A DNA stretch of 64,000 nucleotides from a virus (lineage: Duplodnaviria; Caudoviricetes), in the IMG/VR virus record IMGVR_UViG_3300022305_000561. The stretch is one strand, 5' to 3'. A model generated the notes under the pieces. It ran no database searches. It saw only the letters and a program-made list of their open reading frames with translations, and was not told where the DNA came from. Made by a program: the position numbers and the translations under genes. Positions within the stretch are counted from its first letter, which is position 1, and every line of letters starts with the position of its first letter. Shown here one piece after another: positions 1 through 39,833 of this stretch.

Positions 1-102
1 ATCATTAGTTTGGTGGATGTATTCTTTTTCTTTTAGATATATCGCTTTTTTAAAACACTTTTCATATAAAGCTGGATTTTGTTCATAGTTTGGTTGATTC
101 AT
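1..102 (-). CDS. Partial ORF (MNQPNYEQNPALYEKCFKKAIYLKEKEYIHQTND...), runs off the window; candidate third gp41 fragment (C-intein + helicase C-terminus)
   Basis: ATG at 102 overlaps the end of the endonuclease ORF and the frame is open to position 1. The identity is inferred only from position after an unpaired N-intein. Confidence 0.4.
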   Translation of the reverse strand, partial: MNQPNYEQNPALYEKCFKKAIYLKEKEYIHQTND

Positions 103-1159
103 ATTGAGTCCATAATTTAGTAATAAGTTCTTTATATTCTTGCAATTTTGTTTTTTTATCGTCATCTGACCATATAATATTATACATCATACCTCTATCT
201 TCTGCTATAGATTGCTTATATTCGTCCGATAGTAAAGAAGATTGGTAATCATTAAATGGATTTTTCCAATCTTCTATTTTTCTAGCATGCCATAAAATTC
301 CATGATACTCTATTATAACACCTATCTTCTGAATAGTAAAATCATAAAAAAAACCCTGATTAGTTAATTTAGAATTATCCCTTATAAAAAATTCCTTAGA
401 TCCAGTTACACCAAAATATATACTGTCTCTAGGGATACCTAATTTCCTACAGAACTTATACAATGGAATAAAAAACCTTATAGATTCCTTAGAGACATAA
501 CCCCCAGTTCTTCTACTATCCATACCTGCAAGTAAAGATTCCGTTCTAGTTTTATTACAAGAAATATATTTTTTTAGTCCTTTTTCTTCACCATGTCTCA
601 ATATAAACCCATCGAGTGATTGTGACATATTCGCTAAATATGGTATCCTAAGAATCTCAGCTTCTTCGAGGGTATACCCATTTTTAATCCAATAGTCTAT
701 AGAAAATTTTAACTTCTCAGAGTGGTTATCATAACTCAATTTAGTTCGTTTTTTGGCATTTTTAGATTGTATATCGAATACTTTAGAAATAGCGTCGGGT
801 TCCGACATACCTTTGGATATCCAATAGTCCTTTGAGAACCCATTGTATCTATTTTCCGAAACAGGCCTAACCTTTAGTTTATTTTCATATATTATTAACC
901 CTTCTTTACCATACCTCAATAGTATTTTATCTTTATGTTTTGTTATACTTTTATATTTTTTATATAACATAATATGATCTATATCATAAATTTTATATAA
1001 ATCATATAATATCCTTGCTGTACCAAAAATACTACCTTTTGATGTTTCCTTGTCTATTATCGTAAGGAGATCCTTCATAAAAAGGTCTATCTTATCTTTA
1101 GGTAGATTATCAAGTATATTAGTTATTATGGTAGATTCTTGCCAAGTGGTTTTTCTCAT
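83..1159 (-). CDS. Free-standing homing endonuclease, Vsr/DUF559-like (PD-(D/E)XK) C-terminal domain with N-terminal repeats
   Basis: C-terminal FYDFTIQKIGVIIEYHGILWH motif; repeats SKDYWISKGMSEPDA / SIDYWIKNGYTLEEA / RHGEEKGLKKY; sits between split-intein halves; late promoter TATAAATA at 1189-1196. Confidence 0.8.
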   Translation of the reverse strand: MRKTTWQESTIITNILDNLPKDKIDLFMKDLLTIIDKETSKGSIFGTARILYDLYKIYDIDHIMLYKKYKSITKHKDKILLRYGKEGLIIYENKLKVRPVSENRYNGFSKDYWISKGMSEPDAISKVFDIQSKNAKKRTKLSYDNHSEKLKFSIDYWIKNGYTLEEAEILRIPYLANMSQSLDGFILRHGEEKGLKKYISCNKTRTESLLAGMDSRRTGGYVSKESIRFFIPLYKFCRKLGIPRDSIYFGVTGSKEFFIRDNSKLTNQGFFYDFTIQKIGVIIEYHGILWHARKIEDWKNPFNDYQSSLLSDEYKQSIAEDRGMMYNIIWSDDDKKTKLQEYKELITKLWTQYESTKL

Positions 1160-1225
1160 ACATGTATTCCTATGTTTGTGTGTATTACTATTTATAAGAA
1201 TTGGTATTTACCACAAACATAGTGA

Positions 1226-1492
1226 TTAATAAGATTTTAATCTATTACCGACGTTTAGACCCAGGTTAACAGATAATCTACCTAAATCTGAAGGGAATAT
1301 ATGATCTTTAGATACAGTGATACTCTTCCCACTCTTTAAGGTAATACAAACACATTCCTTAGGTTGCTCGTGGTGCACAAACATAGTAGTTTTAAATACA
1401 TCATTGGCTGTAATCCTATCTCCAGGGATTATATCGCCTATTCGCTTTATAGTGCCATCTATTAATTTAACCTTCTCATCCACCCAGATACA
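1226..1492 (-). mobile_element. Split intein N-fragment (88 aa) at the end of gp41 fragment B
   Basis: Cys1 block A (CIWVDEKVKLIDGTIKRIGDIIPGD) and block B (ITVSKDHIF); ORF ends with no His-Asn terminus. Confidence 0.88.
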
Positions 1493-2398
1493 TTCTGAAG
1501 TATTTGTTAAATCTAAATCTGAACTATTGATACCCTCACGATTAGACTGAGTTGCAGATACTAATGGTACATTATACTCAACTGCTAAACCTCTTAGTTC
1601 TTCTGCAATAGACTTGACATAGGTGTAACTATTAACACCAGCCCCAAACTTCATTCTCTGAGACGCACAGATGTTAAGATAATCAACAAAGATGATGTCT
1701 GGGACAAACTCTTTCTTAGATTTCAGTTCTTCAATCAAAGCTCTAAAGTGACCTGTATGAGCTGAAGCAGTTGGATATTCCTTGATGATTAGAGTACCAT
1801 GCGCTTTCTTTCTCAGCTTTTGAATACGACTTTCAAATATACTCTTATCGACAGTTTTGATTTCAGACATGCCTAGATTCAATAGATTAACATCTATTCT
1901 TTCTGCAATACGTTCTTCTGCCATTTCCATTGTAATATATAACACATTCTTTGTTTGGGCTAACGATGCTGCTGCCATATGACACATTACTAAAGATTTA
2001 CCAACACCAGTATTGTGTGATGAAACTCCATTAGTATAATATCTATGGTTATCGTGGTCTACTTGAATATCAACAATAGGTATCCTATTACCAGTCTTTA
2101 CTACATTTCCTTGAATAAGTATGTTCCCTTCTGTTAGATATAACTCATTAGGAATGTCGATTAAGTCTTTAGCATATTGCCAACCTTTATCAGTTTCAAA
2201 TAGATGGTTTTCATTTACCTTAACCTGTATTCCTGAATCCAAAGTAAGAATATATTCATCCCACTCTCCTTTATCAACAAATAAAGATACTGGAACATAA
2301 CCATCGGGTGAAGTCACTTCTATCTCATATCTAGAAGCTAATAACATATCAATATCTCCTATCGATATTTCTTGTTCTTCCCATTCGCTATTAATCAT
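1226..2398 (-). CDS. 41: gp41 DNA helicase fragment B: 129-aa C-intein + helicase core + 88-aa N-intein
   Basis: ...RYYTNGVSSHN|TGVGKSLVMCH (Walker A second half), LYITMEMAEERIAERID, DIIFVDYLNIC, SATQSNR, then DLTNTSE|CIWVDEKV...TVSKDHIFP. Confidence 0.93.
   Translation of the reverse strand: MINSEWEEQEISIGDIDMLLASRYEIEVTSPDGYVPVSLFVDKGEWDEYILTLDSGIQVKVNENHLFETDKGWQYAKDLIDIPNELYLTEGNILIQGNVVKTGNRIPIVDIQVDHDNHRYYTNGVSSHNTGVGKSLVMCHMAAASLAQTKNVLYITMEMAEERIAERIDVNLLNLGMSEIKTVDKSIFESRIQKLRKKAHGTLIIKEYPTASAHTGHFRALIEELKSKKEFVPDIIFVDYLNICASQRMKFGAGVNSYTYVKSIAEELRGLAVEYNVPLVSATQSNREGINSSDLDLTNTSECIWVDEKVKLIDGTIKRIGDIIPGDRITANDVFKTTMFVHHEQPKECVCITLKSGKSITVSKDHIFPSDLGRLSVNLGLNVGNRLKSY
2012..2398 (-). 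mobile_element. Atypical split intein C-fragment (129 aa)
   Basis: Contains block B-like VKVNENHLF, block F IVDIQV and block G SSHN followed by Thr+1. Confidence 0.9.
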
Positions 2399-2430
2399 AA
2401 AATCTCCAATAATAAAGTTATATTATACTA
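2396..2430 (-). repeat. 35-nt -10/RBS/ATG cassette identical to 7906-7940
   Basis: Minus strand TAGTATAATATAACTTTATTATTGGAGATTTTATG at both loci. Confidence 0.9.
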
Positions 2431-2473
2431 AACCAAATGCTTCTAGGTATTTTCCAGAATTAAAACAGTATTT

Positions 2474-2530
2474 CTAATCAATAACCCTCTTTCTCATCCT
2501 GATTCTAATCTTAGTATCAGGATGAACGCA
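2474..2530 (-). mobile_element. Atypical ultra-short split intein N-fragment (CVHPDTKIRIRMRKRVID)
   Basis: Block A motif starting with Cys inside Walker A, immediately followed by a stop. Confidence 0.85.
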
Positions 2531-3112
2531 TCCAGCCAAAAATATGTTAAGGCTTTTCCTCGACAGACCGCCCGAAGTTATGCGGTTGAGTATATCAATA
2601 TCAAACGGAATCTTTTCCTCAACTCTACGATAAAAGTCAAACCTAGAGTCTGCATCATTAAAGTAATCATGTCCAACATTTGTATCAAAGCAAATACTTA
2701 ATGCCTCAGATAACAGATTAGGAATTGCCTCTTGGGTATGTACCTTATCCTTACCTTCAATGATTTGAATTGAATCAAGGATTGCAATATAAACTGCTCG
2801 TTGCTTACAGAAACCTTCAGTGTGTTCTAATAACCAACCTTGATCAATGTCATTATGTGATAAGGATTCAACTAAGGTTTGAGCCTGAGTTAGCTCAGTT
2901 GCATTGATATCCCTACGATTAGAAATCTCAATTGATAAGATTTCAGGTGTTGCTAGTTTGGTAAAGGTTTCAAAGAACTTAAGGATTTCCTCTGATACAA
3001 TAGATTCAATTCTATCTGCAAAGTATTCTTTCTTTAGAAACGGAATGACCTTCCTTGAATACTCTTCATCGTGGATAAGGTTAGAAAGAATTGTAGTTTC
3101 AATTCTGGACAT
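2474..3112 (-). CDS. 41: gp41 DNA helicase fragment A ending in an 18-aa N-intein
   Basis: MSRIETTILSNL...FDTNVGHDYF...RITSGGLSRKSLNIFLAG then CVHPDTKIRIRMRKRVID*. Confidence 0.93.
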   Translation of the reverse strand: MSRIETTILSNLIHDEEYSRKVIPFLKKEYFADRIESIVSEEILKFFETFTKLATPEILSIEISNRRDINATELTQAQTLVESLSHNDIDQGWLLEHTEGFCKQRAVYIAILDSIQIIEGKDKVHTQEAIPNLLSEALSICFDTNVGHDYFNDADSRFDFYRRVEEKIPFDIDILNRITSGGLSRKSLNIFLAGCVHPDTKIRIRMRKRVID

Positions 3113-3396
3113 TAAATACCACCCGAAAATACTGTTTCTCTGTTCTTAAGTGAATCTTCTAAAATCTCAACTAGAATATCACCAATGGTATTCTTAAAAT
3201 TCTTAGATGTTGTATCACCAGCTGATACATGAACCGTATAATCAAAACTTAGAGTTGGTTCATCTGGATCTGGAAACTCAACCTTACCATATGAAAATAC
3301 AGCACCCTTAAACTCTCCTTCCATTATAGAAATGGCAAGAACTTTCTCACCCTCTACATCATAATAATCAATCACTTCATACATAACATTCTCCAC
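3112..3396 (-). CDS. Probable gp40-like head vertex assembly chaperone / conserved T4-like hypothetical
   Basis: Position between uvsX and 41; FSYGKVEF...LSFDY...IGDILVEILE pattern. Confidence 0.55.
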   Translation of the reverse strand: MENVMYEVIDYYDVEGEKVLAISIMEGEFKGAVFSYGKVEFPDPDEPTLSFDYTVHVSAGDTTSKNFKNTIGDILVEILEDSLKNRETVFSGGI

Positions 3397-3417
3397 TTAA
3401 ATTATTAAACATAACAT

Positions 3418-3446
3418 ATTATACTATTTTTCGACTAAAAAGTAAA
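3418..3446 (-). promoter_or_regulatory. Sigma70/T4-early-type promoter TTTACT-N17-TATAAT
   Basis: Exact 17-nt spacing; same pattern recurs at 5838, 7932, 10573, 19817, 20164 and 23547. Confidence 0.75.
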
Positions 3447-3456
3447 GATAAAATTT

Positions 3457-3526
3457 CTACAGTTTTCAATTATTATAAATAGTAATGAAACAAAAAATGC
3501 CAATCACGAGTTTACGATACCCTATA
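3457..3526 (+). repeat. Truncated, ORF-less copy of the endonuclease leader cassette
   Basis: TATAAATAGTAATGAAACAAAAAATGCCAATCACG is identical to 6067-6101; it breaks off at the uvsX stop codon. Confidence 0.8.
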
Positions 3527-3528
3527 AT

Positions 3529-4146
3529 CTATTCTACTTTATCAAGTTCTTCTTCAATATCTTCATCAACAACTTTATCTAGTTCGGCAGTTATTGATTC
3601 GTCAGTTAATAGTTGACCAGTCGCTAACGTATATCTTTCCCTAACCCACGATAAGAATGTTTTATCTGATAAGATAGGCAACCAGAAGTCTTTGGTATCT
3701 GTATCTTTGATACGATATTTCTTTTCTTGTATTTCGCCAGATAATACATCAACCTTAGAATACCATCCATTTGAGGGTTTTATGACATGACCAGATTCCA
3801 AAGCCATTTCGAGCAATCCAGACCATGTGCTAATACCACCTTCAAACTTCACAGTGATTGGAATTTTAGACTTTTCTCTAACGTGTCTAGACTTCTCAAC
3901 ATTAATGATGAAACTATATCCTGATACTTCTGTTCCTTCTTTTTCTTGTTGTCTGCCTATAATGTAAATATTATCGGCGCTTAGGTAGACCCCAGTTCCA
4001 CCACTCACGATAGGTTTACTGTAGAGCTCTTGGGTATTATGAGAAATGATACCATTACTTAAAACATAATCGTGGGTTGGTGTTTCTATATCATAAACAT
4101 ATTCTTTTCGTGAATTAAATTTAATAGACTTAATCATCATTTTCAT
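3529..4146 (-). CDS. uvsX: UvsX (RecA-like recombinase) C-fragment preceded by a 37-aa C-intein
   Basis: MKMMIKSIK...VYDIETPTHDYVLSNGIISHN|TQELYSKPIVSGGTGVYLSADNIYIIGRQQEK...EKSRHVREKSKIP. Confidence 0.93.
   Translation of the reverse strand: MKMMIKSIKFNSRKEYVYDIETPTHDYVLSNGIISHNTQELYSKPIVSGGTGVYLSADNIYIIGRQQEKEGTEVSGYSFIINVEKSRHVREKSKIPITVKFEGGISTWSGLLEMALESGHVIKPSNGWYSKVDVLSGEIQEKKYRIKDTDTKDFWLPILSDKTFLSWVRERYTLATGQLLTDESITAELDKVVDEDIEEELDKVE
4036..4146 (-). mobile_element. Split intein C-fragment (37 aa) of UvsX
   Basis: Blocks F/G (VYDIE...ISHN) and Thr+1. Confidence 0.9.
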
Positions 4147-4901
4147 TTTTTCTTACTCCTACAATTATCAAAATGCCAGCGACCGCTAGCAACAATCATC
4201 TTACAATGGGGGCATTCTCTTTTTTCATGTTTCCAAGTTAAACCAAATGTTGGATTATTTTCACCTTTCCTAGAACCTATCTTAGAAGTTCTTTCGGCAT
4301 AATCCATAGATTTTACCGAATTTATCCTACGAGCTTCTTGTTCTGTTGTAAAGTTATTTCTAACGGTTTTCATGGAAACTGATTTATGATACCAATCAGT
4401 TTCCTTTAAAATATCAAAACAATCATTCATCTCAGCAAAAAATTTTAAACTGTTTCTAATATTAGATAAAGTGAGACCAATCCCCTTTCTTATATCTGGA
4501 GAAGATATCTTCTCTTTTGTGTACATTTCCCAAATACGAGTAGTTTGTGCGATATAATCATCAAATCCATATTTTCTAGCCCATCTATCTTTAATGGATA
4601 TTCCAATATTTTTAGCAAAGGCTCTTCTTATCCAACCGTAACTCTTATTTGATTGCCTCCCAAACCTATTTGAACACATCATCGTACAAGCATAAATCAA
4701 TTTAGAAATATCTGGGTTGATTTTAACCAATAATAAATGTGCCAAATAGTGTTCTTCTGGAGTCAACCTAACTAAATTATCGAGGGTATCTGCTCCGCCC
4801 ATACAAGTTGGTAATATATGATGTACTTCAACATACCCATCTATATGTGATCGTAAAATACCCCTATTGATTAAACGGTTATAATGTTTTAAATAATTCA
4901 T
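4143..4901 (-). CDS. HNH homing endonuclease inserted between the uvsX halves
   Basis: YVEVHHILPTCMGGADTLDNLVRLTPEEHYLAHLLL; C-terminal CPHC...HFDNC zinc motif; late promoter at 4931-4938. Confidence 0.92.
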   Translation of the reverse strand: MNYLKHYNRLINRGILRSHIDGYVEVHHILPTCMGGADTLDNLVRLTPEEHYLAHLLLVKINPDISKLIYACTMMCSNRFGRQSNKSYGWIRRAFAKNIGISIKDRWARKYGFDDYIAQTTRIWEMYTKEKISSPDIRKGIGLTLSNIRNSLKFFAEMNDCFDILKETDWYHKSVSMKTVRNNFTTEQEARRINSVKSMDYAERTSKIGSRKGENNPTFGLTWKHEKRECPHCKMIVASGRWHFDNCRSKKK

Positions 4902-4950
4902 ATTCTTACCTATGTTATGTATATATGAACTATTTATATATTTTAAACTT

Positions 4951-5805
4951 TCAGATAATATCTAAATACATACCCTCATGTAAATCCTCCACTAACACCC
5001 ATTCACCATTCACCTTAAATTTATGTCCCGATGTAAAAGAAAGCGTTGACCCATCTTCCATTTCAATATCAGTAACAAATGCCTCATCATACTTAAATTT
5101 ATTTAAAACTGGCTCAAATCCATTGGTGGTTAATACATTACACCCAACCTCGATATCTTTTAATGATAATGGTCCAGTTTCTGTCGTCACCATCATATCT
5201 TTAGTACCGCACATATAGATATGGTTAACAGCTACCATAGGAATGTCAAACTTCACTAGGTATGGAGTTATCATCCTAAAGATAGACTTCATTTGCTTTG
5301 CTCTTGACATATCTGTAACAGATTTACCATCCTTTGCATCATCAATTTCTTTCTTACTTGACATATTACCCAAGGAATCTACTAAGAATATGATTTTATC
5401 GCCTTTCGTTATGTTCTCTAAATGATTAATAGCATCTAACTTGAATTCTTCCATATTCATAATTGGAGTATGTAGAATTCTCGACTTGTCCATATTCAAT
5501 GAATCAAAATATGATTCAGGTGTTCCAAACTCACAATCATAGAATACCATAATAGATTCTGGATACTTGTCCATATAGGCTTTTGCCAGGATCAAACAGA
5601 AGAAACTCTTAAAGTGTTTTGAGTTACCACAAAACAAAGTAAGCCCAGGAGTTAATCCACCATCTAATCTTCCCGAAAGAGCTACATTCAATGCTGGGAT
5701 TGGTGTTGGGATCATATCTTTTTTCGTAAAGAATTTAGAAACTGCCAATGTGGAAGTTTCTTTGATGGTACTATTTTTCTTCATTCTTGCTAATAACTCA
5801 CTCAT
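4951..5805 (-). CDS. uvsX: UvsX N-fragment followed by an 86-aa N-intein (4951-5211)
   Basis: LNVALSGRLDGGLTPGLTLFCGNSKHFKS, FYDCEFG, DMSRAKQMKS, VNHIYM|CGTKDMMV...FTSGHKF; start MSEL chosen from the GGTGA RBS. Confidence 0.93.
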   Translation of the reverse strand: MSELLARMKKNSTIKETSTLAVSKFFTKKDMIPTPIPALNVALSGRLDGGLTPGLTLFCGNSKHFKSFFCLILAKAYMDKYPESIMVFYDCEFGTPESYFDSLNMDKSRILHTPIMNMEEFKLDAINHLENITKGDKIIFLVDSLGNMSSKKEIDDAKDGKSVTDMSRAKQMKSIFRMITPYLVKFDIPMVAVNHIYMCGTKDMMVTTETGPLSLKDIEVGCNVLTTNGFEPVLNKFKYDEAFVTDIEMEDGSTLSFTSGHKFKVNGEWVLVEDLHEGMYLDII

Positions 5806-5837
5806 ATTATCACCTTTATTATTGTTATGATACAACT

Positions 5838-5866
5838 ATTATAACCCCAAATTGGATAAAAGTAAA
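5838..5866 (-). promoter_or_regulatory. Promoter TTTACT-N17-TATAAT upstream of uvsX
   Basis: Consensus boxes with 17-nt spacer. Confidence 0.75.
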
Positions 5867-5869
5867 GAC

Positions 5870-6046
5870 TTATTTTTCTTCCCATAAACCCATCGGTCCA
5901 AATCTATTCCTAAGTTCTTCTAGATTGGCTGGTTGTCTAGAAACATTGGCATCATTCCAATGGCTCTGTTGGTGCTGATTGAACTGGGTTTTGAGGATCC
6001 AATTATAACAGAAAGGGCATTGATATTCAAGTTTATACGGATTCAT
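5870..6046 (-). CDS. Small C2H2 zinc-finger protein (58 aa), not in the ORF track
   Basis: Hand translation MNPYKLEYQCPFCYNWILKTQFNQHQQSHW...LWEEK*; CX2CX11HX3H; paralog at 25185. Confidence 0.7.
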   Translation of the reverse strand: MNPYKLEYQCPFCYNWILKTQFNQHQQSHWNDANVSRQPANLEELRNRFGPMGLWEEK

Positions 6047-6050
6047 AATC

Positions 6051-6164
6051 TACAGTTTCCAATTCTTATAAATAGTAATGAAACAAAAAATGCCAATCAC
6101 GGGTTTCTGACACCCTATTGGCTCTAATCATTCTTTCAATAATCAAGGACTATTATGACCAGCA
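6051..6164 (+). promoter_or_regulatory. Endonuclease leader: late promoter + conserved hairpin + RBS
   Basis: TATAAATA at 6067-6074; stem GCCAAT(6092-97)/ATTGGC(6117-22); CTCTAATCATTC; AGGA; ATGACCAGCA. Confidence 0.8.
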
Positions 6165-6815
6165 ACGATATTTATTCCCCAATTACCCCAACCTATCTCT
6201 GCATCAAACAACATTCCATCACCAAGAAAAAATATTTCGGCAAGACCACAAGATCAGATCCAATAAAGTATAAAGGATCAGGAGTTTACTGGGGTCTTCA
6301 TATCAACAAGCACGGTAGGCAGTTCGTCGAAACAATCTGGCTATCCGATCTATACTACGATACCTCTATAGTAGAACAAGCACTCCATTTCTCACACGAA
6401 AACAGCATCGTCGAATCAGACGATTGGGCAAATATAATCCCAGAAAATGGATTAGATGGAGCTCCTGCAGGTAATAAAAAAAGGACCACATTCTGATGAA
6501 ACAAAATCTAAAATATCTGCTGCTATGATAGGTAAGAAAAGAGGTCCCCAATCCGATGAGCGTAAATCTAAACAATCTATTGCTATAACAGGCAAAAAGG
6601 CTTCTGATGAAACAAAAGCTAAACAATCTGCTGCTAAGGTAGGTAAGAAGAAAGGTCCACATTCAGACGACCATAAAGAAAAATTATCTGCTGCTATGAT
6701 AGGTAAGAAGAAAGGTCCTCCTTCTGACGAAACTAAGGCAAAAAGAGCAGTAACTAGAGCTGCTAATAAAGCAGCTCGTCTATTGTTAAAAGAATTAATC
6801 ATCAACGATTTGTAA
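6155..6815 (+). pseudogene. GIY-YIG (Seg-like) homing endonuclease with NUMOD3 repeats, frameshifted at an A7 run (6476-6482)
   Basis: TYLCIKQHSITKKKYFGKT...YKGSG catalytic half (6155-6496); HSDETKSKISAAMIGKK repeats in the +1 frame (to 6815). Confidence 0.8.
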
Positions 6816-6816
6816 A

Positions 6817-7908
6817 CTAAAAGAAGTCATCAAGTGTCGCCTTCTCCTCTAATACCCATCCCATTGGATCAATAATATTCCCTAGAGGATCCAAGAATAC
6901 CTTTTCAAACTGATAATCATAATCCACATATTTGTGAAGCCCAAACTCAACTGGCAACTCAGATGGAAATGCTATCACATTCTCTTTGATTGTGTTGGGT
7001 TTTTTGAGATATATGAACTTGATCTTATCCCCAGACTTGATAGGTGGATATTTGCTTGTCAACCCCAATTCTTTAAGAAGATGATTATACAACAATGCTC
7101 CTCTAACATGAATCGGACAACCTTTAGCATAGATCGATACGTTACTACTATATTCAGCAACACCATTCACACCTCTTGGAAATGCTATATCCTCAATAGG
7201 AATACTCGTAAACTCTTTTCTAGCCAATTCAATGAACTTGATAAGGTCACCATTAGTTCCGTCAAGGATAACGCCTATAGTTGACTTCAGTTTATCTCTA
7301 ATTGCCTGTGGTGTTGAAGACTTTACGATTTCCAAACCCATAATCTTAAGTTTAGGTTGGTCATATTGAACGCCCTCAGAGTTATGAACTCTAAGAATAT
7401 ACTTCTTCTTTCTACACCAAACACCCTTATCAGCCAGAACTTCTCGCTTCATCTGCATCTTGTTTTGAAATGCATTCATATAAGATGCTAGATCAGCATA
7501 AGACTTTTCAATGATTGGAGTTATAACTTGACTGCAAAACTTATCCATGAACTTAATCTTTTCATCAGTTGTTTTACCAACTTGAGTTTGTTCAACTAAA
7601 GTTTCTAATGCTAGGTAAACTGAGTCAGTATCAATCGCAATGATATAATCCTTATCAACAGTCTTCATTGATGTGTTCATATACAAATTAAGAGTATTGG
7701 CGATCCACTTGATCGAAAGTTGACCAGACACAGTAACACTCTCTGCCATTCTCAAATCATAGTATCTAAAGTATGCATTACCCAATGCTCCATATGCTGA
7801 GTTCAAAGCAATCTTCAAAGCCATCTGAAGATTAGTCAGCCGTGAGATTTCTTTCCCTGTACTAACTTTCAACTTTAATAAATCTGAATCACTCATTTCT
7901 TCAAACAT
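6817..7908 (-). CDS. 43: DNA polymerase gp43B (C-terminal fingers/palm/thumb)
   Basis: [38 protein letters not shown]-terminal clamp-binding TLDDFF. Confidence 0.95.
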
Positions 7909-7960
7909 AAAATCTCCAATAATAAAGTTATATTATACTATAAATCATAATAAAAGTAAA
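7906..7960 (-). promoter_or_regulatory. Internal promoter TTTACT-N17-TATAAT and RBS for gp43B
   Basis: -35 at 7955-7960, -10 at 7932-7937, GGAG RBS; 35 nt identical to the gp41-B upstream region. Confidence 0.8.
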
Positions 7961-7961
7961 T

Positions 7962-8023
7962 AGTGAGTTTCCAATTCTTATAAATAGTAATAAACAAAAA
8001 AAATGCCAATCACGATGCGTCAA
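7962..8023 (+). repeat. Truncated endonuclease-leader scar within the gp43 split
   Basis: GTGAGTTTCCAATTCTTATAAATAGTAATAAACAAAAAAAATGCCAATCACG with no following ORF. Confidence 0.8.
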
Positions 8024-8078
8024 CAAAATAGGTGCAGGAAACAGTATGAAAAGATGGCATTTTGATAACTGTAAGTTA

Positions 8079-9542
8079 TTACAACCCTCTTCTACTTAAC
8101 TCAGCCTTTATATTTTCATATTTTTGTTCTTCATCTAACATTTGTCTTTTGAATCCAACGCGATTGTTATACATTGTTTCCATTAAACTAGGCAAAAATC
8201 CTTGCTTATCATTCTTATAACACCATCCATTAGCTGAGACAGATAATCCTGTCTCAGGAATAGGTTCTTTCTTAAGCAATCCCTCAATAGTAAGGTTTAA
8301 TCTCGTATCAGCAATCATCTCAGGACTGATGTTATATTGACGAATTAGTGAAGGATATAAACTTGCCAAATCGAACGATGCTACCCATTTATGCATACCC
8401 TTTATAGGATCTTTGACGTATGCACCCTCAAACGCTTCACCTTTAGAATGATGTTCATTGTTAGGAATAACAACTTTCTTCTTCAACAAATCGTTATAGA
8501 TGATAGCATCCCATAGCTTCACAGGACTAAACGCATCATTATAGTTAATCTTTGCTGTATAAGCCATCGTTAGATGTAACTCAATCAACCTTAACTTATC
8601 TTCTAACTTATCAACTATGTCAACATCTTTTATGTTGTAGTCGACGAACAACTCAAAGTCTTTTGTATAGAAGTCCTTGAATGATGCAAACTGACTATGA
8701 TCAACTTTCTTTTCGTCTAACTCAACAAAGCCAATATGGTCAAGTTTATAAGATTCTTGAGTAGTGAATGTGTATTTCTTATAAAGAACGATGTAATCTA
8801 ATGAAGATATACCCACCAGATCAAACATTAGTTCTTCAGTACCACGAATATTAATTTTCTTTTCGTTAACAATATTCCAAGGTGATAACTTCTTATAATC
8901 ATCACCAAGAACCTTTTTGATACGATTGACTAAGTAAGGAATATCAAACAAGTCAGTATTCCAACCTGTGATAACATCAGGCATATTACATTGCCAATGA
9001 GTCAAGAACTTCCTCAATAAATCCTGTTCATTCTTACACAAGACATAGTTGTTTGCAAACTTACCTGTATATGGTCTTGAACCAAAGGTTTTATACTCTT
9101 TAGACTTGTTATCTTGGATAGTGATTAGCAGAATCTCTTCAGCTGCATACTTAGGTTCTGGAAAGGCATCGGCTTCAGTTGCAGTTTCAATATCGATTGA
9201 AACTATCTTCATCAAATCTGAATCGAAGATTATATCTTCAGGATGAGTCTCAGAGATATACTGATAAGCATAGTTAGTTTGACCAAAGATATTGAACGAC
9301 CCAACTCCCTCATAAGTTTTGATGAATTCCTTACAATCATTAATGTTTCCTGGTTTTATCTCATATGCTGGAATATCATTTAATGTAGACCATTCAGTGG
9401 GTACTGATGCAGTTTTAGTATTGGTTGTGTACAAGGTAGGATAAAAGTCTACCTTCTGTTTTTGCGGAAGTCCGTCCCGAATAGAACGAACTAAAAGTTG
9501 ACTGCCATATTGGAGACAGGATGTGTAGAATGATGTTGACAT
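8079..9542 (-). CDS. 43: DNA polymerase gp43A (N-terminal, 3'-5' exonuclease, palm motif A)
   Basis: SIDIET, ITGWNTDLFDIPY, YNIKDV, SFDLASLYPSLIRQYNISPE; ends in the fingers helix. Confidence 0.95.
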   Translation of the reverse strand: MSTSFYTSCLQYGSQLLVRSIRDGLPQKQKVDFYPTLYTTNTKTASVPTEWSTLNDIPAYEIKPGNINDCKEFIKTYEGVGSFNIFGQTNYAYQYISETHPEDIIFDSDLMKIVSIDIETATEADAFPEPKYAAEEILLITIQDNKSKEYKTFGSRPYTGKFANNYVLCKNEQDLLRKFLTHWQCNMPDVITGWNTDLFDIPYLVNRIKKVLGDDYKKLSPWNIVNEKKINIRGTEELMFDLVGISSLDYIVLYKKYTFTTQESYKLDHIGFVELDEKKVDHSQFASFKDFYTKDFELFVDYNIKDVDIVDKLEDKLRLIELHLTMAYTAKINYNDAFSPVKLWDAIIYNDLLKKKVVIPNNEHHSKGEAFEGAYVKDPIKGMHKWVASFDLASLYPSLIRQYNISPEMIADTRLNLTIEGLLKKEPIPETGLSVSANGWCYKNDKQGFLPSLMETMYNNRVGFKRQMLDEEQKYENIKAELSRRGL

Positions 9543-9569
9543 TGTAGCTCCATAATTTAAGTATAGTTC

Positions 9570-9598
9570 ATTATACTACCGTTTTGGTATTTTGTAAA
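9570..9598 (-). promoter_or_regulatory. Promoter TTTACA-N17-TATAAT upstream of gp43A
   Basis: Consensus boxes with 17-nt spacer. Confidence 0.75.
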
Positions 9599-9600
9599 GA

Positions 9601-10161
9601 CTATATTGGATACATCAGTTGAACAGCATCGTAGGCTGCGTCTCCCACTGGATCATGTTTGATTACCTTTTGGACATCAAAATCTTTCAGGCTAACTTCA
9701 CAATATCCTTTCTTAGAAGTCGATGCTAATATGTCTATTGCAGTTCGTGTGTCTCTATATTGGTTATACAAAACTAATGGCTTTGCGCTAATAGCATTAC
9801 ACAAACTTTCCATTGCCATCTGGTCAAGAGCACCACGAGTCCAAAGTATTTTTGTAGGAGATGGATCTGTATTTAGATAATTACGTAGGAGTTCTATACC
9901 TTCAATAGCAGACACATCGTGTTTGGAAGGGTTGAGGCTAGTTTGTTTTGCAAAGTCACATTGATTCTTCCACCACTCTAAGGTAGATTTGGAAACGGTG
10001 CGTTTGTATTTTTGGATTTGTTCTTGAGCATCAAACTTCACAAAGATAGATTTTTCAATCATTTCTTCATAAGTCATACCATCGTTAAAATATACCATTG
10101 CGGCTGATAAGATAACGCAGGTACTTTCAGTCGATAAGGTCTCGATATCTAGCACAATCAT
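9601..10161 (-). CDS. DexA-like DnaQ-family 3'-5' exonuclease
   Basis: LDIETL, TLEWWKNQ, WTRGALD, RDTRT, KHDPVGDAAYD. Confidence 0.75.
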   Translation of the reverse strand: MIVLDIETLSTESTCVILSAAMVYFNDGMTYEEMIEKSIFVKFDAQEQIQKYKRTVSKSTLEWWKNQCDFAKQTSLNPSKHDVSAIEGIELLRNYLNTDPSPTKILWTRGALDQMAMESLCNAISAKPLVLYNQYRDTRTAIDILASTSKKGYCEVSLKDFDVQKVIKHDPVGDAAYDAVQLMYPI

Positions 10162-10186
10162 TCAATTTCTCCATAATTAAAACACT

Positions 10187-10215
10187 ATTATACCTGACTA
10201 TCCGAAAATAGTCAA
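10187..10215 (-). promoter_or_regulatory. Promoter TTGACT-N17-TATAAT
   Basis: Consensus boxes with 17-nt spacer. Confidence 0.75.
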
Positions 10216-10230
10216 GTATATTTTTAGAAT

Positions 10231-10539
10231 TTAGATAATCAATTTACGATCTGGAACTTGTATCAATGGTGCTTCTTCAGGTTCTTCAAACTTTGAATTA
10301 TATTCATCGATCAAACCTTGAACAGGAGTACCAACAGATACAATAGCAGATTTGTAGATATTGGTAGTACCATCAACATAAGGCATATATTGGGCTATCA
10401 TAATACCCATAGTGCCATCTTCTCTTGATTGAATAGCGATTTGAGCAGGATTTGATGTTGTGAATTGAAAGGCATCTTCATCGACAACAATAGCCAGTAA
10501 TTCTTCACCGCTTGATAATTTGAAACATTTTGTCGTCAT
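10231..10539 (-). CDS. Conserved T4-like hypothetical protein (Sm-like fold family)
   Basis: KCFKLSSGEELLA...YMPY...LIDEY pattern typical of this family. Confidence 0.55.
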   Translation of the reverse strand: MTTKCFKLSSGEELLAIVVDEDAFQFTTSNPAQIAIQSREDGTMGIMIAQYMPYVDGTTNIYKSAIVSVGTPVQGLIDEYNSKFEEPEEAPLIQVPDRKLII

Positions 10540-10572
10540 CTTATATTCCTAAGGTCAATATATTAAAATACT

Positions 10573-10601
10573 ATTATACTATAAAGTTACATAAAAGTAA
10601 A
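10573..10601 (-). promoter_or_regulatory. Promoter TTTACT-N17-TATAAT, back-to-back with an endonuclease late promoter
   Basis: Flanking sequence nearly identical to 7931-7970. Confidence 0.75.
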
Positions 10602-10602
10602 T

Positions 10603-10707
10603 AGTGAGTTTTCAATTTGTATAAATAGATATAGGTGTTACTCACGGATGGCTGTCCTAGTAACTCTAATCATTCTACTATTAATTCAGGAACTAATATG
10701 ACCAGCA
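10603..10707 (+). promoter_or_regulatory. Endonuclease leader (late promoter + hairpin)
   Basis: TATAAATA at 10620-27; GTTACT(10637-42)/AGTAAC(10659-64); CTCTAATCATTC; ATGACCAGCA. Confidence 0.8.
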
Positions 10708-11408
10708 CAAGTATATATACACCCTTTTTACCAGACCAATATTGCGTTTATCATACCACTTATTCCGGAAAACTTCTACCTCAAAACTATATTGGCTCAT
10801 CATCAGTAGACAATGTTCTAAATAAAAATTATCACGGTTCAGTGGTATCAGAACGATACAAGTCAATATGGTTATCTGAATTAAAACTCCATCCCGAACT
10901 GTTTTCAACAGTAATAGTATCTTACCACGATACCAGATCAAATGCAACATATAAAGAACTTCAGGTACAAAGAACATTAAATGTTGTTAAAAGCGAGTTA
11001 TTCGTCAATAGATCATATGCCTCCGTATATGGGTTTACCGATACAACATACACACCAGAAGAAAAAGAGGTAATGAGTAAGAAACTATCTACTGGACATG
11101 CTAATAGAACTCCTGAAGAAAAAGCAAAAACGAGTAAGAAAATGTCAGATGCGCGTAAAGGAAAAAAGCAATCAGAAGAACATATATCTAAAAGATCTGC
11201 TGCTAATACAGGACTAAAAAGATGTCCTCGTTCTGATGAGTATAGAACTAAACAATCTGTTGCACATACAGGTAGGAAAAGAGGTCCTCAATCGACAGAA
11301 CATAGGAATAAACTATCTTCTATATTCTTCTTCTTAATATCAACTAAGAAAAGTTATACTAAAAGAGCATTAACTAGATATTTTCCCGAGTTCAAGCAAT
11401 TTTATTAA
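10698..11408 (+). CDS. GIY-YIG-like homing endonuclease with NUMOD3 repeats
   Basis: YCVYHTTY...NYIGSSS...YHGSV; repeats QSEEHISKRS, RSDEYRTKQS, QSTEHRNKLS. Confidence 0.8.
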   Translation: MTSTSIYTPFLPDQYCVYHTTYSGKLLPQNYIGSSSVDNVLNKNYHGSVVSERYKSIWLSELKLHPELFSTVIVSYHDTRSNATYKELQVQRTLNVVKSELFVNRSYASVYGFTDTTYTPEEKEVMSKKLSTGHANRTPEEKAKTSKKMSDARKGKKQSEEHISKRSAANTGLKRCPRSDEYRTKQSVAHTGRKRGPQSTEHRNKLSSIFFFLISTKKSYTKRALTRYFPEFKQFY

Positions 11409-12310: not shown

Positions 12311-12733
12311 TTATTTCCTGACGCCAATAGCATACTTTTGTACGAGTTGCCATTGAGGTTTTTCCGCATAAGACAATATCTTGATTGAAGATAATGATGT
12401 CCTATTTTGAGTCTTTTCTGCATCTACTACTTTCAACAGATTCCAATCCTGAAGTAATATCGCAATGGTGTTTCTACGTTCAATGTCGCCCATACTTATA
12501 TTGGTTCCCTTACCATCCAAGGCAAATAGTTCTTTAAAATGGATTATGTAGTACCTACCTTGTTTGTGAAGGATGTGACAAGATTGATAAAGAGTATTAT
12601 CCTTTCTTGATGCCACACCAATTCTTGTTAATGTTTCTTTGATCTTTAGAAAACTATCAGGTTCAGGGATCACAATCTCCAACATAGATTCTATAGTCCA
12701 ATCCAAATATACCGCATTATCATTATATTCCAT
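12311..12733 (-). CDS. regA: Translational repressor RegA
   Basis: FLKIKETLTRIGVASRKDNTLYQSCHILHKQGRYYIIHFKELFALDG. Confidence 0.97.
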   Translation of the reverse strand: MEYNDNAVYLDWTIESMLEIVIPEPDSFLKIKETLTRIGVASRKDNTLYQSCHILHKQGRYYIIHFKELFALDGKGTNISMGDIERRNTIAILLQDWNLLKVVDAEKTQNRTSLSSIKILSYAEKPQWQLVQKYAIGVRK

Positions 12734-15243: not shown

Positions 15244-16356
15244 TTACACCTCATACACTTCATTATCGGTTAGAATCTTATCAAACAAATCGATGAATGA
15301 TAAACGAGTTGATTCATCGAATCTATTAACACACAATTCAACCGATTTCTTCTTATCATTAAAGATTGAGAAAGACTTGACAATATGTATCAATCTACGA
15401 GTAGTGATGTTTTCATCAACACCACCATCATCAAATGTTCTACGGATCGTATCAGCCCAACGAACAAGATCATTAGCAAAATCGGTATCTAAACAATCAA
15501 ATTGATTCATCACATTTGTAACAATCTTTAACTCAACTGCTTGTCCTGGATAATCTTGAACCATTGTTACTGCAAATCGTTCAAGGAAGGCTTCGTTCAA
15601 GATATTCGTACCGATGTAACGACCATCTTCAGAACCCTTACCTTTTGTATTAGCAGTAGCAAAGATATTGAAACCGTCAGCAGGAATAATCATCTCGTTC
15701 TTCAACTTGAAGTAAAACGGTTTTCCTTCTAAAATTGGTTGAAGACATAACAATGTATTGGCATTACCAGCATCAATCTCATCTAGTAACAACACATAAC
15801 CCATTCTCATAGCACGAACAATTGGTCCTTCAATTACTTCAACATTACCATCAGTCAAAGTTTTAGTACCAATCAACTGGTCTTCATCAGTCATACTGTT
15901 AAGATTGATACGAATAATTGGACGATTTTGTTTAGCACATATTTGTTCAACAGTGGTAGATTTACCATTACCAGTTGGACCATAAATGTAAGTAGGATAG
16001 AAGATTTTAGACTTGATAACTTTTTCTACATCTTTATGGATACCGAATGGTACATAAGTTAGGTCAGTTGGAGGAATAAGGGATTCAGAAATATCATTAG
16101 ATATTTGAGTTTTTACAACAGTCAATTTAGGTTCAACTGCTTTTACTTCTCCAGTATATCCTGGAAGAGCATAAACACCTCGAGATACTCGAGTCTTTGT
16201 AATTATATAGAAATTAACAGGTTCTTTAATCTGAACTGATAATTTTTCAGCAGACTCAATTGCTTGTTGTCGTGTTACAACATTTGTTGTTTTTGTATCA
16301 GGATACATTTCAGATACAAGATTTAATAATTTAGTACGTTTTTCACTTGATTTCAT
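15244..16356 (-). CDS. MoxR/CobS-like AAA+ ATPase
   Basis: GPTGNGKST, LLDEID, TANTKGKGSEDGRYIGTNILNEAFLERF. Confidence 0.9.
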   Translation of the reverse strand: MKSSEKRTKLLNLVSEMYPDTKTTNVVTRQQAIESAEKLSVQIKEPVNFYIITKTRVSRGVYALPGYTGEVKAVEPKLTVVKTQISNDISESLIPPTDLTYVPFGIHKDVEKVIKSKIFYPTYIYGPTGNGKSTTVEQICAKQNRPIIRINLNSMTDEDQLIGTKTLTDGNVEVIEGPIVRAMRMGYVLLLDEIDAGNANTLLCLQPILEGKPFYFKLKNEMIIPADGFNIFATANTKGKGSEDGRYIGTNILNEAFLERFAVTMVQDYPGQAVELKIVTNVMNQFDCLDTDFANDLVRWADTIRRTFDDGGVDENITTRRLIHIVKSFSIFNDKKKSVELCVNRFDESTRLSFIDLFDKILTDNEVYEV

Positions 16357-16423
16357 AATATATTTTCTCACTTGGTTTATTTAATTTATAAGTTATTATA
16401 AACTATGGTATTCATATTGTCAA
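16351..16423 (-). promoter_or_regulatory. Perfect sigma70 promoter TTGACA-N17-TATAAT plus a 43-nt leader duplicated at 20120-20162
   Basis: -35 at 16418-23, -10 at 16395-16400. Confidence 0.85.
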
Positions 16424-16430
16424 CCTTTAT

Positions 16431-18515
16431 TTAAGCCACCAACTTAATAAACTGATCAAGGACAGTACGATTGGTTTTCTTATTGTTTAAGAACTTCTTA
16501 AACTGTGAAGCCATACCTGAGGCAGTAGCATTTGGTTTGATTTCTAACTCAACAGTAGTTGATTTATTTTTTGATGATGGGAGGAAGTATAATTCATCAT
16601 AAGCAGTTGTTTCTAAAGTGAAAACACCTGTTTTTCTGATACTGCTTCTAATCTTCTCATAATTATCATACATTGTATCATATCTTCCTATAGGATTCAT
16701 AAATCCACTAATGAAATTGAAGATTTCACGTTTATTAACTCCTGCAATATAGAATCCAATTACTGGAATATTGTAACGGTCTTTGATAACTTTCAAAAGA
16801 AATTGGGTTTGTTCACTGGCACGTAAAGGAAACACATAATCCTTTTTAGTTTTTATATCTCTTAACTTATGAAGTATTTTTTTCTGCCAGTCGATTGTGC
16901 TACTATCAACCTTCAAAGTGGTTGAAATACCATCAGTAAGAACAACCAATGAAGTTTTTTCAACATTATTCATTCTAGTAAACTTACCTAAGTAATCAAC
17001 CATATACAATAAAGAAGAATTCAAAGGAGTATCGCCTAAACGATAGTCTCTTGAATACTGCCAAGGTCGTGATAAAACCAACTTAAGCATTTTGTTGAAT
17101 TCGGTTATTGACATTTTGTTGGAAAACAACTCTATCAGATTAAAATTATCAGATATTATAGAACTATTAAGTTTACTAGCATTAATTCTGTGTTTGTGAC
17201 ATTGTGAAGTAAATGCTAATACTTGATAAGCAATACCCGATCTTTGACAAAATGAAGCAAGATTAATAACTTGTTTAAGAGTATCTTCCATAACGCCACA
17301 CATTGAACCAGACCAGTCTAGTAGAAAGATCATACCGTGATTTTTTTCATCAGTTACGGTTGATATAGACTTGAATAGATTATCTGATATTGTATGGGCA
17401 AATAACTTGTTTACGTTAAGTCCACCAGTCTTTGCGATAGTTGTTCTAGAATAACGTCTTGCAGACTTCTTCATCTCAAACTCTTTAACTAGGTAGTTTA
17501 CATAGTTAGCTGATTCAGATTTGAACTCATTTACTGATTTTTCTCTATCACTAGCATAACCAGTATCAAGACCAACCACATAGTCTTCCGATAAATCGGT
17601 AAGAACTTGTTTATAACCAACGATTGGATTTTGAAACTCGGAAGGAACTTCAGTAGTATGATTGATAATGGATAAATGAGTATCAGCCAAGTTACCTAGG
17701 TTATTATCAAATGCTTCTTGAGTAGAGGCTTCTAAGGCTTCTTCCTCTTCTTTTTCTTCTTTACTCTTACCACCTGAACCTTTCGCAGTATCATCTTCTA
17801 TTTCTTCATCCGAACCTTCATCATCTGAATCGCCATCAGTTACTTCTGAATCTTCATCTTCCTCAGAATCATCATCATTATATTCATCATCATAAGAATC
17901 ATCATTTTCATATTCTTCAAATGATTCATTAGGTTCTTCAGACATTTGTTGTTCTTGTTGTTCAGCTTTCTTATCCTCATAATCAGCCTTTGAAAAAGCA
18001 TATATGTCATCAGATAAGGTAGTCACATCATTAACAGTATCACAAGTTTTTGCACGTTCAACAAAAACCATTTCTTGTTTAGTAAAAGTAACACCACAAG
18101 AAGAACCAGACTTGAAGTAAAGATTGATTCTATTGATTAGATTTAACTTAGATAAATCTTGATTGGCAATCTTAAAGAAGTCACGGTCATTCAACTCTTT
18201 ATAACCTTGAACAAAGTCTTTACGAAGACCAGGAAAGATTGATTTGATTTTACGTTCAATGCGAACATCTTCTATAACATTGATGTAAGATTTAGGTGTT
18301 TTAGAATCATTAACAAGAAGTTCAATAGGGGAGAACAATGCATGTCCTACTTCATGGGCTTTCAACATTATTTCAATCGTATCGGTCATATCTTGCCATT
18401 GAGGCAAAGTAAGAACACGATTAACAATATCGAAGGAAGCAGTAGAAACACCTGCCCGAACAATATCAATGTTCTCAGAAGCAAGTAGTTTGGCTAGTAA
18501 ATCAGTTTTATTCAT
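16431..18515 (-). CDS. CobT-like peptidase/VWA-domain protein, partner of the AAA ATPase
   Basis: HEVGHALF (HEXXH), acidic linker, LLDWSGSM MIDAS motif, TPLN, VLTDG. Confidence 0.85.
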   Translation of the reverse strand: MNKTDLLAKLLASENIDIVRAGVSTASFDIVNRVLTLPQWQDMTDTIEIMLKAHEVGHALFSPIELLVNDSKTPKSYINVIEDVRIERKIKSIFPGLRKDFVQGYKELNDRDFFKIANQDLSKLNLINRINLYFKSGSSCGVTFTKQEMVFVERAKTCDTVNDVTTLSDDIYAFSKADYEDKKAEQQEQQMSEEPNESFEEYENDDSYDDEYNDDDSEEDEDSEVTDGDSDDEGSDEEIEDDTAKGSGGKSKEEKEEEEALEASTQEAFDNNLGNLADTHLSIINHTTEVPSEFQNPIVGYKQVLTDLSEDYVVGLDTGYASDREKSVNEFKSESANYVNYLVKEFEMKKSARRYSRTTIAKTGGLNVNKLFAHTISDNLFKSISTVTDEKNHGMIFLLDWSGSMCGVMEDTLKQVINLASFCQRSGIAYQVLAFTSQCHKHRINASKLNSSIISDNFNLIELFSNKMSITEFNKMLKLVLSRPWQYSRDYRLGDTPLNSSLLYMVDYLGKFTRMNNVEKTSLVVLTDGISTTLKVDSSTIDWQKKILHKLRDIKTKKDYVFPLRASEQTQFLLKVIKDRYNIPVIGFYIAGVNKREIFNFISGFMNPIGRYDTMYDNYEKIRSSIRKTGVFTLETTAYDELYFLPSSKNKSTTVELEIKPNATASGMASQFKKFLNNKKTNRTVLDQFIKLVA

Positions 18516-18546
18516 AATATATTATCTCTTTTTCAATTTATAAGTT

Positions 18547-18575
18547 ATTATAAATGATAAAGTTCATATTGTCAA
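18547..18575 (-). promoter_or_regulatory. Perfect sigma70 promoter TTGACA-N17-TATAAT
   Basis: Exact consensus. Confidence 0.85.
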
Positions 18576-18585
18576 CATTTATTTT

Positions 18586-19849: not shown

Positions 19850-20125
19850 TTACACATAAAACTCCTTAATAACTTCAAACCCTGTTTTAGTCAAACCAAC
19901 TTTAGATTCCCTTCCTTCAGATGTATGCCAAACCAAATTAGCATTAAGTAAACTTGTAAAAGTTCCTTTGTCTTGAGCAGTTTCTAAAATACTTGACGCC
20001 CAAGTAGTGCTTTCATTAGGATCATTTGATTCAAGTAACGCTTTAGCATCACCGTTGAAATTTGTAAAATCATCTTCAACGATTTTAGACAGTAAGTTAA
20101 ATTGTAATTCAGTAGGTTTTTTCAT
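19850..20125 (-). CDS. Hypothetical early protein
   Basis: Own promoter (20164-20192) and duplicated leader. Confidence 0.6.
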   Translation of the reverse strand: MKKPTELQFNLLSKIVEDDFTNFNGDAKALLESNDPNESTTWASSILETAQDKGTFTSLLNANLVWHTSEGRESKVGLTKTGFEVIKEFYV

Positions 20126-20200
20126 AATATATTTTCTCACTTGGTTTATTTAATTTATAAGTAATTATACCTCATCTAAAACCAAAAGTAAAGCATTATT

Positions 20201-23579: not shown

Positions 23580-23890
23580 ATTGAATTTAGGAAGTTTATG
23601 TTAAAAGCATAAACTCTAAAACCTTCAAAATACCTTATTTATTTTCCATCTAAATCAATAACTTACAAATCATTTATTCGCTTAAATATCGTAATCTGTA
23701 TAAAGTTACGTCTTGTTTATACTTAAATGTGTTTAAAATGACTTCTTTTTATGTATTTAAGTTATAAATCAATAGATTAGAGAAATGTTCTCTTAGGATA
23801 TAAGGCAAAAAATATCAATTCTCAAAGTCTTGACTTTTGCCTGTTTTTATAGTATACTTTATCTGTGGTTGGGTTAAGTAGATTTATAGA
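23580..23890. other. AT-rich noncoding region with two IHF consensus sites and an antisense promoter; candidate origin
   Basis: WATCAA-N4-TTR at 23653-65 and 23767-79; plus-strand TTGACT-N17-TATACT at 23830-23858. Confidence 0.45.
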
Positions 23891-25180: not shown

Positions 25181-25184
25181 GATT

Positions 25185-39763: not shown

Positions 39764-39772
39764 TGTGTTTCC

Positions 39773-39827: not shown

Positions 39828-39833
39828 AGTAGA

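Follow-up and report, generated by a model that had tools for sequence, protein, structure and literature searches.

We analyzed a stretch of 64,000 nucleotides (nt; hereafter the window) from a virus of the Caudoviricetes (Duplodnaviria), IMG/VR record IMGVR_UViG_3300022305_000561, in which an identical 35-nt sequence, the 35-mer, stands ahead of the downstream halves of two split replication genes, gp41 (helicase) and gp43 (family B DNA polymerase). The region is a T4-type replication module on the minus strand, with genes for a sliding clamp, a clamp loader, a RegA-like repressor, an exonuclease, gp43, UvsX and gp41. Megablast of positions 1-10600 against cultured phages returned no match, none being close at the DNA level, and the best cultured protein matches are cyanomyoviruses, at no more than 56% amino acid identity. 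The relatives used below (L001, L002 and so on) are metagenome contigs. Three split sites of the window contain an intact endonuclease gene (83-1159, 4143-4901 and 24215-25144), and two, gp41-A/gp41-B and gp43A/gp43B, have none, with no open reading frame (ORF) in either gap. Both of these fragment pairs keep their original order and orientation at one locus, and they are matched from one end to the other by unsplit ORFs in L084, L002 and L003. As a preliminary description of this DNA had stated, the two sites without an endonuclease are those that carry the 35-mer.

The window contains the exact 35-mer twice and no more, each time on the minus strand (2396-2430 and 7906-7940); the ATGs of these copies open ORFs 1226-2398 (gp41-B) and 6817-7908 (gp43B). 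The order within each copy is TATAAT, a 14-nt A/T-rich leader, GGAG, five bases and ATG, so that the -10 box, ribosome-binding site and start first described were all found in both. Past the 35-mer, two of the next three bases match and identity then ends, giving 38 nt at 97%. No further copy with up to three mismatches exists in the window (expectation from 100 shuffles, 0.00), and a mismatch scan found no other with up to nine. When relatives were checked, exact and degenerate searches of IMG/VR and JGI metagenome contigs yielded nothing beyond a near copy in L001. The signals carried by the two copies are unequal. A Shine-Dalgarno (SD) sequence and ATG are present in both, and in a promoter scan of the window the gp43B copy forms a full predicted promoter (TTTACT-17-TATAAT, 10/12), with its -35 hexamer at 7960-7955 and a spacer of 17 nt; the same scan found only the -10 box, and no -35 hexamer upstream, at gp41-B. 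The expression signals originally attributed to both sites are thus complete at gp43B only, and the gp41-B copy, because it has no -35, may no longer be a promoter. Neither gap (2399-2473, 7909-8078) contains a predicted terminator-like hairpin. Coordinates are collected in Table 1.

Table 1. Coordinates and content of the split genes, 35-mer copies and endonuclease remnants in the window (HEG, homing endonuclease gene)
Feature	Position	Strand	Description
35-mer copy 1	2396..2430	minus	-10 box 2427-2422; GGAG 2407-2404; ATG of gp41-B/IntC-1 2398-2396
35-mer copy 2	7906..7940	minus	-10 box 7937-7932; GGAG 7917-7914; ATG of gp43B 7908-7906
gp43A	8079..9542	minus	exonuclease and N-terminal polymerase part; no intein
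gp43B	6817..7908	minus	C-terminal part of family B DNA polymerase; no intein
gp43 gap	7941..8099		endonuclease scar: minus-strand -35, plus-strand late-promoter-type TATAAATA, HEG remnants
gp41-A	2474..3112	minus	helicase N-part, residues 1-194, and 18-residue N-intein fragment
gp41-B	1226..2398	minus	C-intein fragment 1, helicase core, N-intein fragment 2 (from CIWVDEK)
HEG stump in gp41 gap	2431..2477	plus	GIY-YIG/NUMOD3 (Seg-like), reverse-oriented; 47 nt, 14 codons
Intact paralogous cassette	10540..11408	plus	promoter module 10560-10633 and GIY-YIG/NUMOD3 HEG 10635-11408
gp41		minus	at least three ORFs: 2474-3112, 1226-2398 and an ORF leaving the window; endonuclease gene 83-1159 before the last
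UvsX		minus	two ORFs, 4951-5835 and 3529-4146, with endonuclease gene 4143-4901 between
UvsW			25322-26725 and 23891-24215, broken by endonuclease gene 24215-25144

The gp43 gap still reads as the remains of a homing endonuclease gene (HEG). On its plus strand, a late-promoter box TATAAATA at 7979-7986 is followed by the start of an HEG 5' leader, and positions 8022-8099 encode the last 26 HEG codons, NKIGAGNSMKRWHFDNCKLLQPSST, and a stop. In L001, whose gp43A and gp43B are 85% and 91% identical to those of the window in amino acids, a reverse-strand ORF of 248 residues lies between the two halves; it matches both homing-endonuclease families and NUMOD3 repeats and is Seg-like. In the alignment, the 170-nt gap of the window equals the L001 gap minus about 710 nt; microhomology at the deletion ends, judged against L001, amounts to 1-2 nt at most, and we make no claim from it. 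With its HEG in place, L001 carries a promoter and leader for gp43B too, with three changes inside the 35-mer. In L002 and L003 (83-88% amino acid identity), gp43 is a single unbroken ORF. No intein residues are present at the gp43 break. The tail of gp43A (..KRGL, then stop) and the head of gp43B (M..MSDxxLLKLK) are common to distant phages, in which the two halves, not separated by any HEG, are TAATG-coupled or have a 4-nt gap. We rejected the HEG as the creator of the split because these distant phages share the split ends without one; the comparison indicates that the gp43 split is older than its endonuclease gene and is widespread.

Two other features touch the polymerase and its endonuclease. 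In L024, L026 and L028 (about 4016-6001), gp43B is interrupted after about residue 97 by an insert of about 2 kb, either an intein or an intron with an endonuclease, which marks a second insertion hot spot of the polymerase. In the window, a paralog of the L001 gp43-gap endonuclease lies at 6155-6815 on the plus strand as two overlapping ORFs (6155-6496 and 6456-6815). Its N-terminal part is 77-79% identical to the L001 endonuclease and the same late-promoter leader stands ahead of it (6049-6118); being frameshifted, it may be decaying.

At the gp41 site, the break falls within an intein. The closest relative, L084, shows 89-95% DNA identity, with identical residues 1-194 of gp41-A, and its UvsX and gp41 genes are unsplit, intein-free single ORFs. 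Homology to L084 stops exactly at 2531|2011, which sets both the content of the insert and the borders of the intein: 519 nt encoding an N-intein fragment (IntN) of 18 residues, CVHPDTKIRIRMRKRVID (2477-2530), then a stop, a 75-nt spacer and a C-intein fragment (IntC) of 129 residues. The latter spans residues 1-129 of gp41-B (2012-2398) and ends with SSHN before TGVGKS. gp41-B is the middle piece of gp41, consisting of the DnaB_C core with Hint matches at both ends. The sequences at the gp41 break give Hint/PT-HINT matches, and both pieces align with the inteins of L083, L167 and L171, in which the gp41 intein is contiguous. Cys1, the terminal HN and Thr+1 are all present, and the gp41 A/B intein is predicted from sequence to be of the atypical split type, with a short N-fragment. 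It resembles the AceL-TerL type in this respect, its IntN being far below the usual length of about 100 residues; published N-fragments of that type have 25-37 residues, against 18 here.

In nine related contigs (L081, L082, L085, L168-L170 and L172-L174), a reverse-strand HEG of the HNH type interrupts the gp41 intein at the position where it is split in the window. In L168 and L169 a promoter with -35 and -10 boxes and a leader stand ahead of IntC while the HEG is still present, and a manual count on aligned sequences gives 26 matches in 32 positions between the L169 leader and the 35-mer. An HNH endonuclease of this kind was considered as the source of the window's gp41 spacer and rejected: the C-termini differ, and the match is to the GIY-YIG family of HEG 10635-11408. 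On the plus strand, 2433-2477 reads PNASRYFPELKQYF followed by a stop that overlaps the gp41-A stop tail to tail. This reading includes SRYFPELKQYF-stop; the end of HEG 10635-11408 is TRYFPEFKQFY-stop, and related genes in L161, L162 and L164 have similar ends. The motif [RK][YW][FH]PE[FLM]xx[YF][YF]-stop hits the C-termini of four genes of the 10635-11408 family and 2445-2477, and nothing else: neither the remainder of the window, nor the other 1.4 Mb of loci, nor 200 shuffles contain it. The gp41 scar and HEG 10635-11408 also have TTATACTAAA in common, at an equal distance from their stops.

The junction of this stump with the 35-mer lies in an octamer, TTATACTA (2423-2430), the complement of the -10 box TAGTATAA, which recurs in the S-Y-T-K codons at the 3' end of the HEG. 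Three sequences meet here: from the octamer, the gp43B module continues into its spacer and -35, the HEG continues into its last 15 codons, and the gp41 spacer combines the left flank found in the gp43B module with the right flank found in the HEG. The gp41 deletion probably joined these short repeats, an event that would account both for the missing -35 and for the sharp limit, at the -10 box, of the match to the gp43B copy.

Exact short repeats can mislead assemblers, and with no close cultured match and only metagenome contigs as relatives, the record is itself probably a metagenome assembly, in which the repeat might mark a chimeric join or a collapsed repeat. Such an artefact is very improbable. 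Both junctions are collinear with independent contigs: for the order gp43A-gap-gp43B, L001 agrees base by base to either side of the deletion, and the IntN-gap-IntC order and split position recur in the nine contigs cited above. The swapped arrangement, with gp43A next to gp41-B, was not seen, and a repeat of 35-38 nt is shorter than the usual final k-mers.

The endonucleases had been described as lost at both 35-mer sites, and the stumps that remain readable in the two gaps bear this out. The history that we consider rather probable is that the 35-mer formed the outward end of a back-to-back promoter module beside reverse-oriented HEGs and survived the deletion of those genes. One side of such a module would carry the late TATAAATA promoter and leader for the HEG, and the other a sigma-70-type early promoter and leader for the downstream host gene; the -10 box, short unstructured leader, SD and ATG of the 35-mer would lie at its outward-facing end. 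The window would once have held two such cassettes, one in the gap of an already split gp43 and one at the split site of the gp41 intein, with modules made near-identical by recent copying, through duplication of a cassette or through gene conversion between modules that were then longer. Both HEG bodies would later have been deleted, and the start signals kept, since the downstream polymerase and helicase fragments are presumed to be essential by analogy with T4 gp43 and gp41. In gp41, the deletion would have run from the octamer complementary to the -10 box to its repeat in the S-Y-T-K codons of the HEG, with loss of the -35, of the late promoter and of most of the HEG. gp41-B would then probably be transcribed by read-through (for example, from a promoter at 3446-3418) and only translated from the SD and ATG of the cassette, while gp43B would keep a complete promoter.

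The preliminary description had instead proposed that a single element or gene-conversion event supplied expression signals that rescued the broken genes after the endonuclease was lost. In this scenario, gene conversion or insertion following the deletion would have copied the gp43B promoter and leader to gp41-B, or the reverse. Part of the proposal stands. Given that three changes already distinguish the L001 ortholog, the exact identity of the two copies implies that one was recently copied from the other inside this genome, by either cassette duplication or gene conversion. Identity is also sharply bounded by the -10 box and the ATG, and a further pair of leaders (described below), whose breakpoint lies at the -10 box, shows that such exchanges occur in this genome. 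The supply of signals after the loss, however, does not fit the relatives: L001 at gp43 and L168 and L169 at the gp41 intein hold a reverse HEG together with a promoter and leader, so the start signals appear to predate HEG loss. HEG-bearing relatives already possess an SD and ATG, and no fragment would have been left without signals. A 35-nt patch would moreover need two crossovers in microhomology, where a single deletion inside an existing module is more parsimonious, and a copy without a -35 would be an odd product of an event selected to restore expression. We therefore regard rescue after loss as unlikely.

Nor is the 35-mer peculiar to split genes. Compared across the clade, it is an ordinary member of an early promoter/leader family that is also found ahead of unsplit genes; leaders of the same type precede the unsplit gp43 of L002 and other genes in L003, L004 and L084. 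In L003 the gp43 module recurs over 116 nt (88.8%), next to an HNH HEG and ahead of a different gene, and the window's own module at 10560-10633, 81% identical to the gp43 module, comprises back-to-back early (minus strand, for ORF 10231-10539) and late (plus strand) promoters. Among the 16 early promoters in the window, the 35-mer pair matches at 35/35 positions, compared with a mean of 16/35 and 31/35 for the next pair. The second leader pair precedes two unrelated, unsplit ORFs, 15244-16371 and 19850-20140; its members (16351-16400 and 20120-20169) agree at 49 of 50 positions over the stretch that directly follows the -10 box and reaches to ATGAAA. In its upstream half, the ORF 15244-16371 promoter instead matches a third promoter (18510-18584). 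Since the halves match different promoters, the promoters of this genome appear to be mosaic, with breakpoints at the -10 box.

Could the two leaders have been kept identical by selection as a common operator, bound by a RegA-type repressor or by the polymerase in autoregulation, so that the fragments are expressed in step? A RegA-like translation repressor is encoded at 12311-12733, both genes specify parts of the replisome and the leader is A/U-rich around the start; T4 RegA targets A/U-rich sequence around the start codon. Orthologous leaders nevertheless vary, with three changes in L001 and 6/32 in L169, and gp43A and gp41-A, which are needed in equal amounts with their partners, have different leaders. 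That the paralogous copies stay identical while orthologs drift, and that the partner fragments use other leaders, makes operator selection improbable. We also considered a structured RNA or operator in the leader and dropped it, because folding is no better than that of shuffled sequences (z-scores of -1.5, +0.1 and -0.7).

Several other putative promoters and leaders are repeated in the window. An orphan late-promoter box with an endonuclease leader occupies 3408-3525, between UvsX-B and ORF 3112-3396; it is 91% identical to 6049-6118 and has no ORF behind it, and L084 has a short hairpin and a promoter at this place. It is probably a third endonuclease scar. The same junction sequence lies at 6007-6080 and at about 25145-25225, outside the late promoter of two different endonuclease genes, and holds the start of a small divergent ORF (5870-6046 and its paralog). 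Finally, a promoter-like repeat of 65 nt (83%; TTGACT-17-TATACT/GATAAT and a leader) occurs on the plus strand at 23829-23893 and 39772-39836, the first copy pointing antisense into the end of UvsW.

At the split sites with an intact endonuclease, the downstream ORF had been reported to overlap the endonuclease stop, and this arrangement was contrasted with the separate cassette at the sites where the endonuclease is lost. The overlaps are largely as reported. The ATGA at 4146-4143 is present, and at 83-102 an ATG (102-100) in the frame of the ORF leaving the window gives an overlap with the endonuclease stop (85-83); another ATG of this frame, at 165, is a possible alternative start. The TAATG at 24217-24213 is present as well, but the ORF opened there stops after 18 codons. 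The contrast itself, rather than tracking endonuclease loss, appears to follow HEG orientation: HEGs on the same strand overlap the downstream start, and reverse HEGs require the downstream fragment to have a start of its own.

In UvsW, the C-terminal fragment (24160-24217, minus strand) runs from the ATG overlapping the endonuclease stop for 18 codons (..GAIIIASY) to a TGA, reading MLPEKIQEVRGAIIIASY; the helicase motifs continue (DATFSTGINIP..) in another frame, in ORF 23891-24172. Possible explanations of this break are recoding, a frameshift, a sequencing error and decay to a pseudogene. Near the last piece of gp41, the 3' portion of endonuclease gene 83-1159 contains, ahead of the gp41-C start, a good early-promoter match (TTTACT-17-TATAAT with TG, 340-312, minus strand), which resembles promoters embedded in T4 seg/mob genes.

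Some observations weigh against the outward-promoter history that we favor. No relative was found to have an HEG of the 10635 type in the gp41 intein, where those seen are of the HNH type, so the state of gp41 before the deletion must be reconstructed from a 47-nt stump. At the junction, the repeat has only 8-10 nt and overlaps a consensus promoter element, and its match could be partly coincidental. The more distant relatives L082, L085 and L170-L174 have a reverse HEG with no obvious early promoter, which indicates that an outward promoter is not universal in such cassettes. The early promoter of ORF 3112-3396 seems to be resident, as L084 has one without an HEG leader; early promoters may simply be landing sites for HEGs.

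The two sites find close counterparts in the fractured genes of Dassa et al. (2009, PMC2677866), in which a split intein is combined with a free-standing homing endonuclease. In that model the invading element brings a stop, an initiator Met and possibly transcription signals for the broken gene, and the HEG can subsequently be lost, leaving remnants of its leader (step III, locus gp41-7). Here too the break in a phage gp41 helicase lies at an intein, the halves remaining in order and orientation, and the two gaps hold only HEG stumps (14 codons in gp41; 26 codons and a leader in gp43), as at the stage where the endonuclease is lost. The other split sites of the window, with a same-strand HEG whose end overlaps the downstream start, resemble four loci of that study, in all of which, as in arrangements described in the paper, the HEG follows the direction of the host gene. 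Unlike these, the two lost HEGs of the window faced the opposite way, and the restart derives from the 5' side of the HEG (a divergent early promoter with SD and ATG), not from an overlap at its 3' end. The gp41 intein is, in addition, split at an atypical site, and gp43 has no intein.

The gp43 site in turn recalls Aeromonas phage 25, in which the endonuclease seg43 lies between 43A and 43B, and phage 44RR, which has only an untranslated spacer (Edgell et al. 2010, PMC2988022). In both systems an intein-free family B polymerase is encoded as 43A and 43B, and a Seg-like HEG occupies the gap of one phage (L001 here) and a non-coding spacer that of a close relative (the window). In both, too, it is doubtful whether the HEG split the gene or entered a split already there (PMC2988022), and here the split form is old. 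The phages are different, those closest to the window in culture being cyanomyoviruses, and the spacer of the window, unlike that of 44RR, can be read directly as a deletion derivative of an HEG cassette. As with nrdA/mobE of Aeh1 and gene 43 of phage 25, unbroken (L002, L003), HEG-bearing (L001) and scarred (the window) states occur together.

T4 seg and mob insertions displace or supply promoters for essential neighbors, which constrains deletion of the HEG (Edgell et al. 2010, PMC2988022). A promoter for an essential neighbor is likewise tied to an HEG here; nearly all T4 HEGs, however, point in the same direction as their neighbors, with promoters inside or 3' of the HEG, whereas the promoter in the window diverges from the HEG's own late promoter. 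The 35-mer also shares features with the promoter early/stem-loop (PeSL) cassettes of T4-type phages (2010, PMC2839356; Comeau et al. 2014, PMC4122927), which combine mosaic early promoters with a stem-loop: short, repeated, near-identical early-promoter segments stand ahead of unrelated genes, and their mosaic structure implies recombination within them. Unlike PeSL cassettes, neither copy of the 35-mer has an adjacent stem-loop terminator, only two exact copies exist in the window, and these are tied to endonuclease cassettes in core replication genes rather than to hyperplastic regions.

A broader and, in our view, doubtful reading treats the sequence between the -10 box and the start codon, both included, as an expression module that is portable and interconvertible and allows gene fracture to be tolerated throughout the clade. 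Breakpoints at the -10 hexamer would move identical leaders between unrelated genes, as in at least two pairs in the window, and reverse HEG cassettes, which carry the module at their outward end, would be pre-adapted to break essential genes non-lethally. If true, this would be a general mechanism for tolerating gene fracture and not a by-product of two deletions.

The two sites are a well-documented new example of a known process, that modeled by Dassa et al. (2009), and not a new element; they document current understanding well and do not change it. With fragments of 18 and 129 residues, the split intein is a candidate for use in protein semisynthesis. For the phages themselves, the interest lies in finding nearly every stage of the published gene-breaking model within one set of relatives: unbroken genes, a contiguous mini-intein, an intein split by an HEG and a split left behind after HEG deletion, with the same series of stages in an intein-free polymerase. 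Two details are added to that model. An HEG inserted against the direction of its host gene can provide the downstream fragment with a divergent early promoter, a ribosome site and an ATG, and subsequent deletion of the HEG would be limited by the need to keep these signals, having stopped in gp41 exactly at the -10 box.

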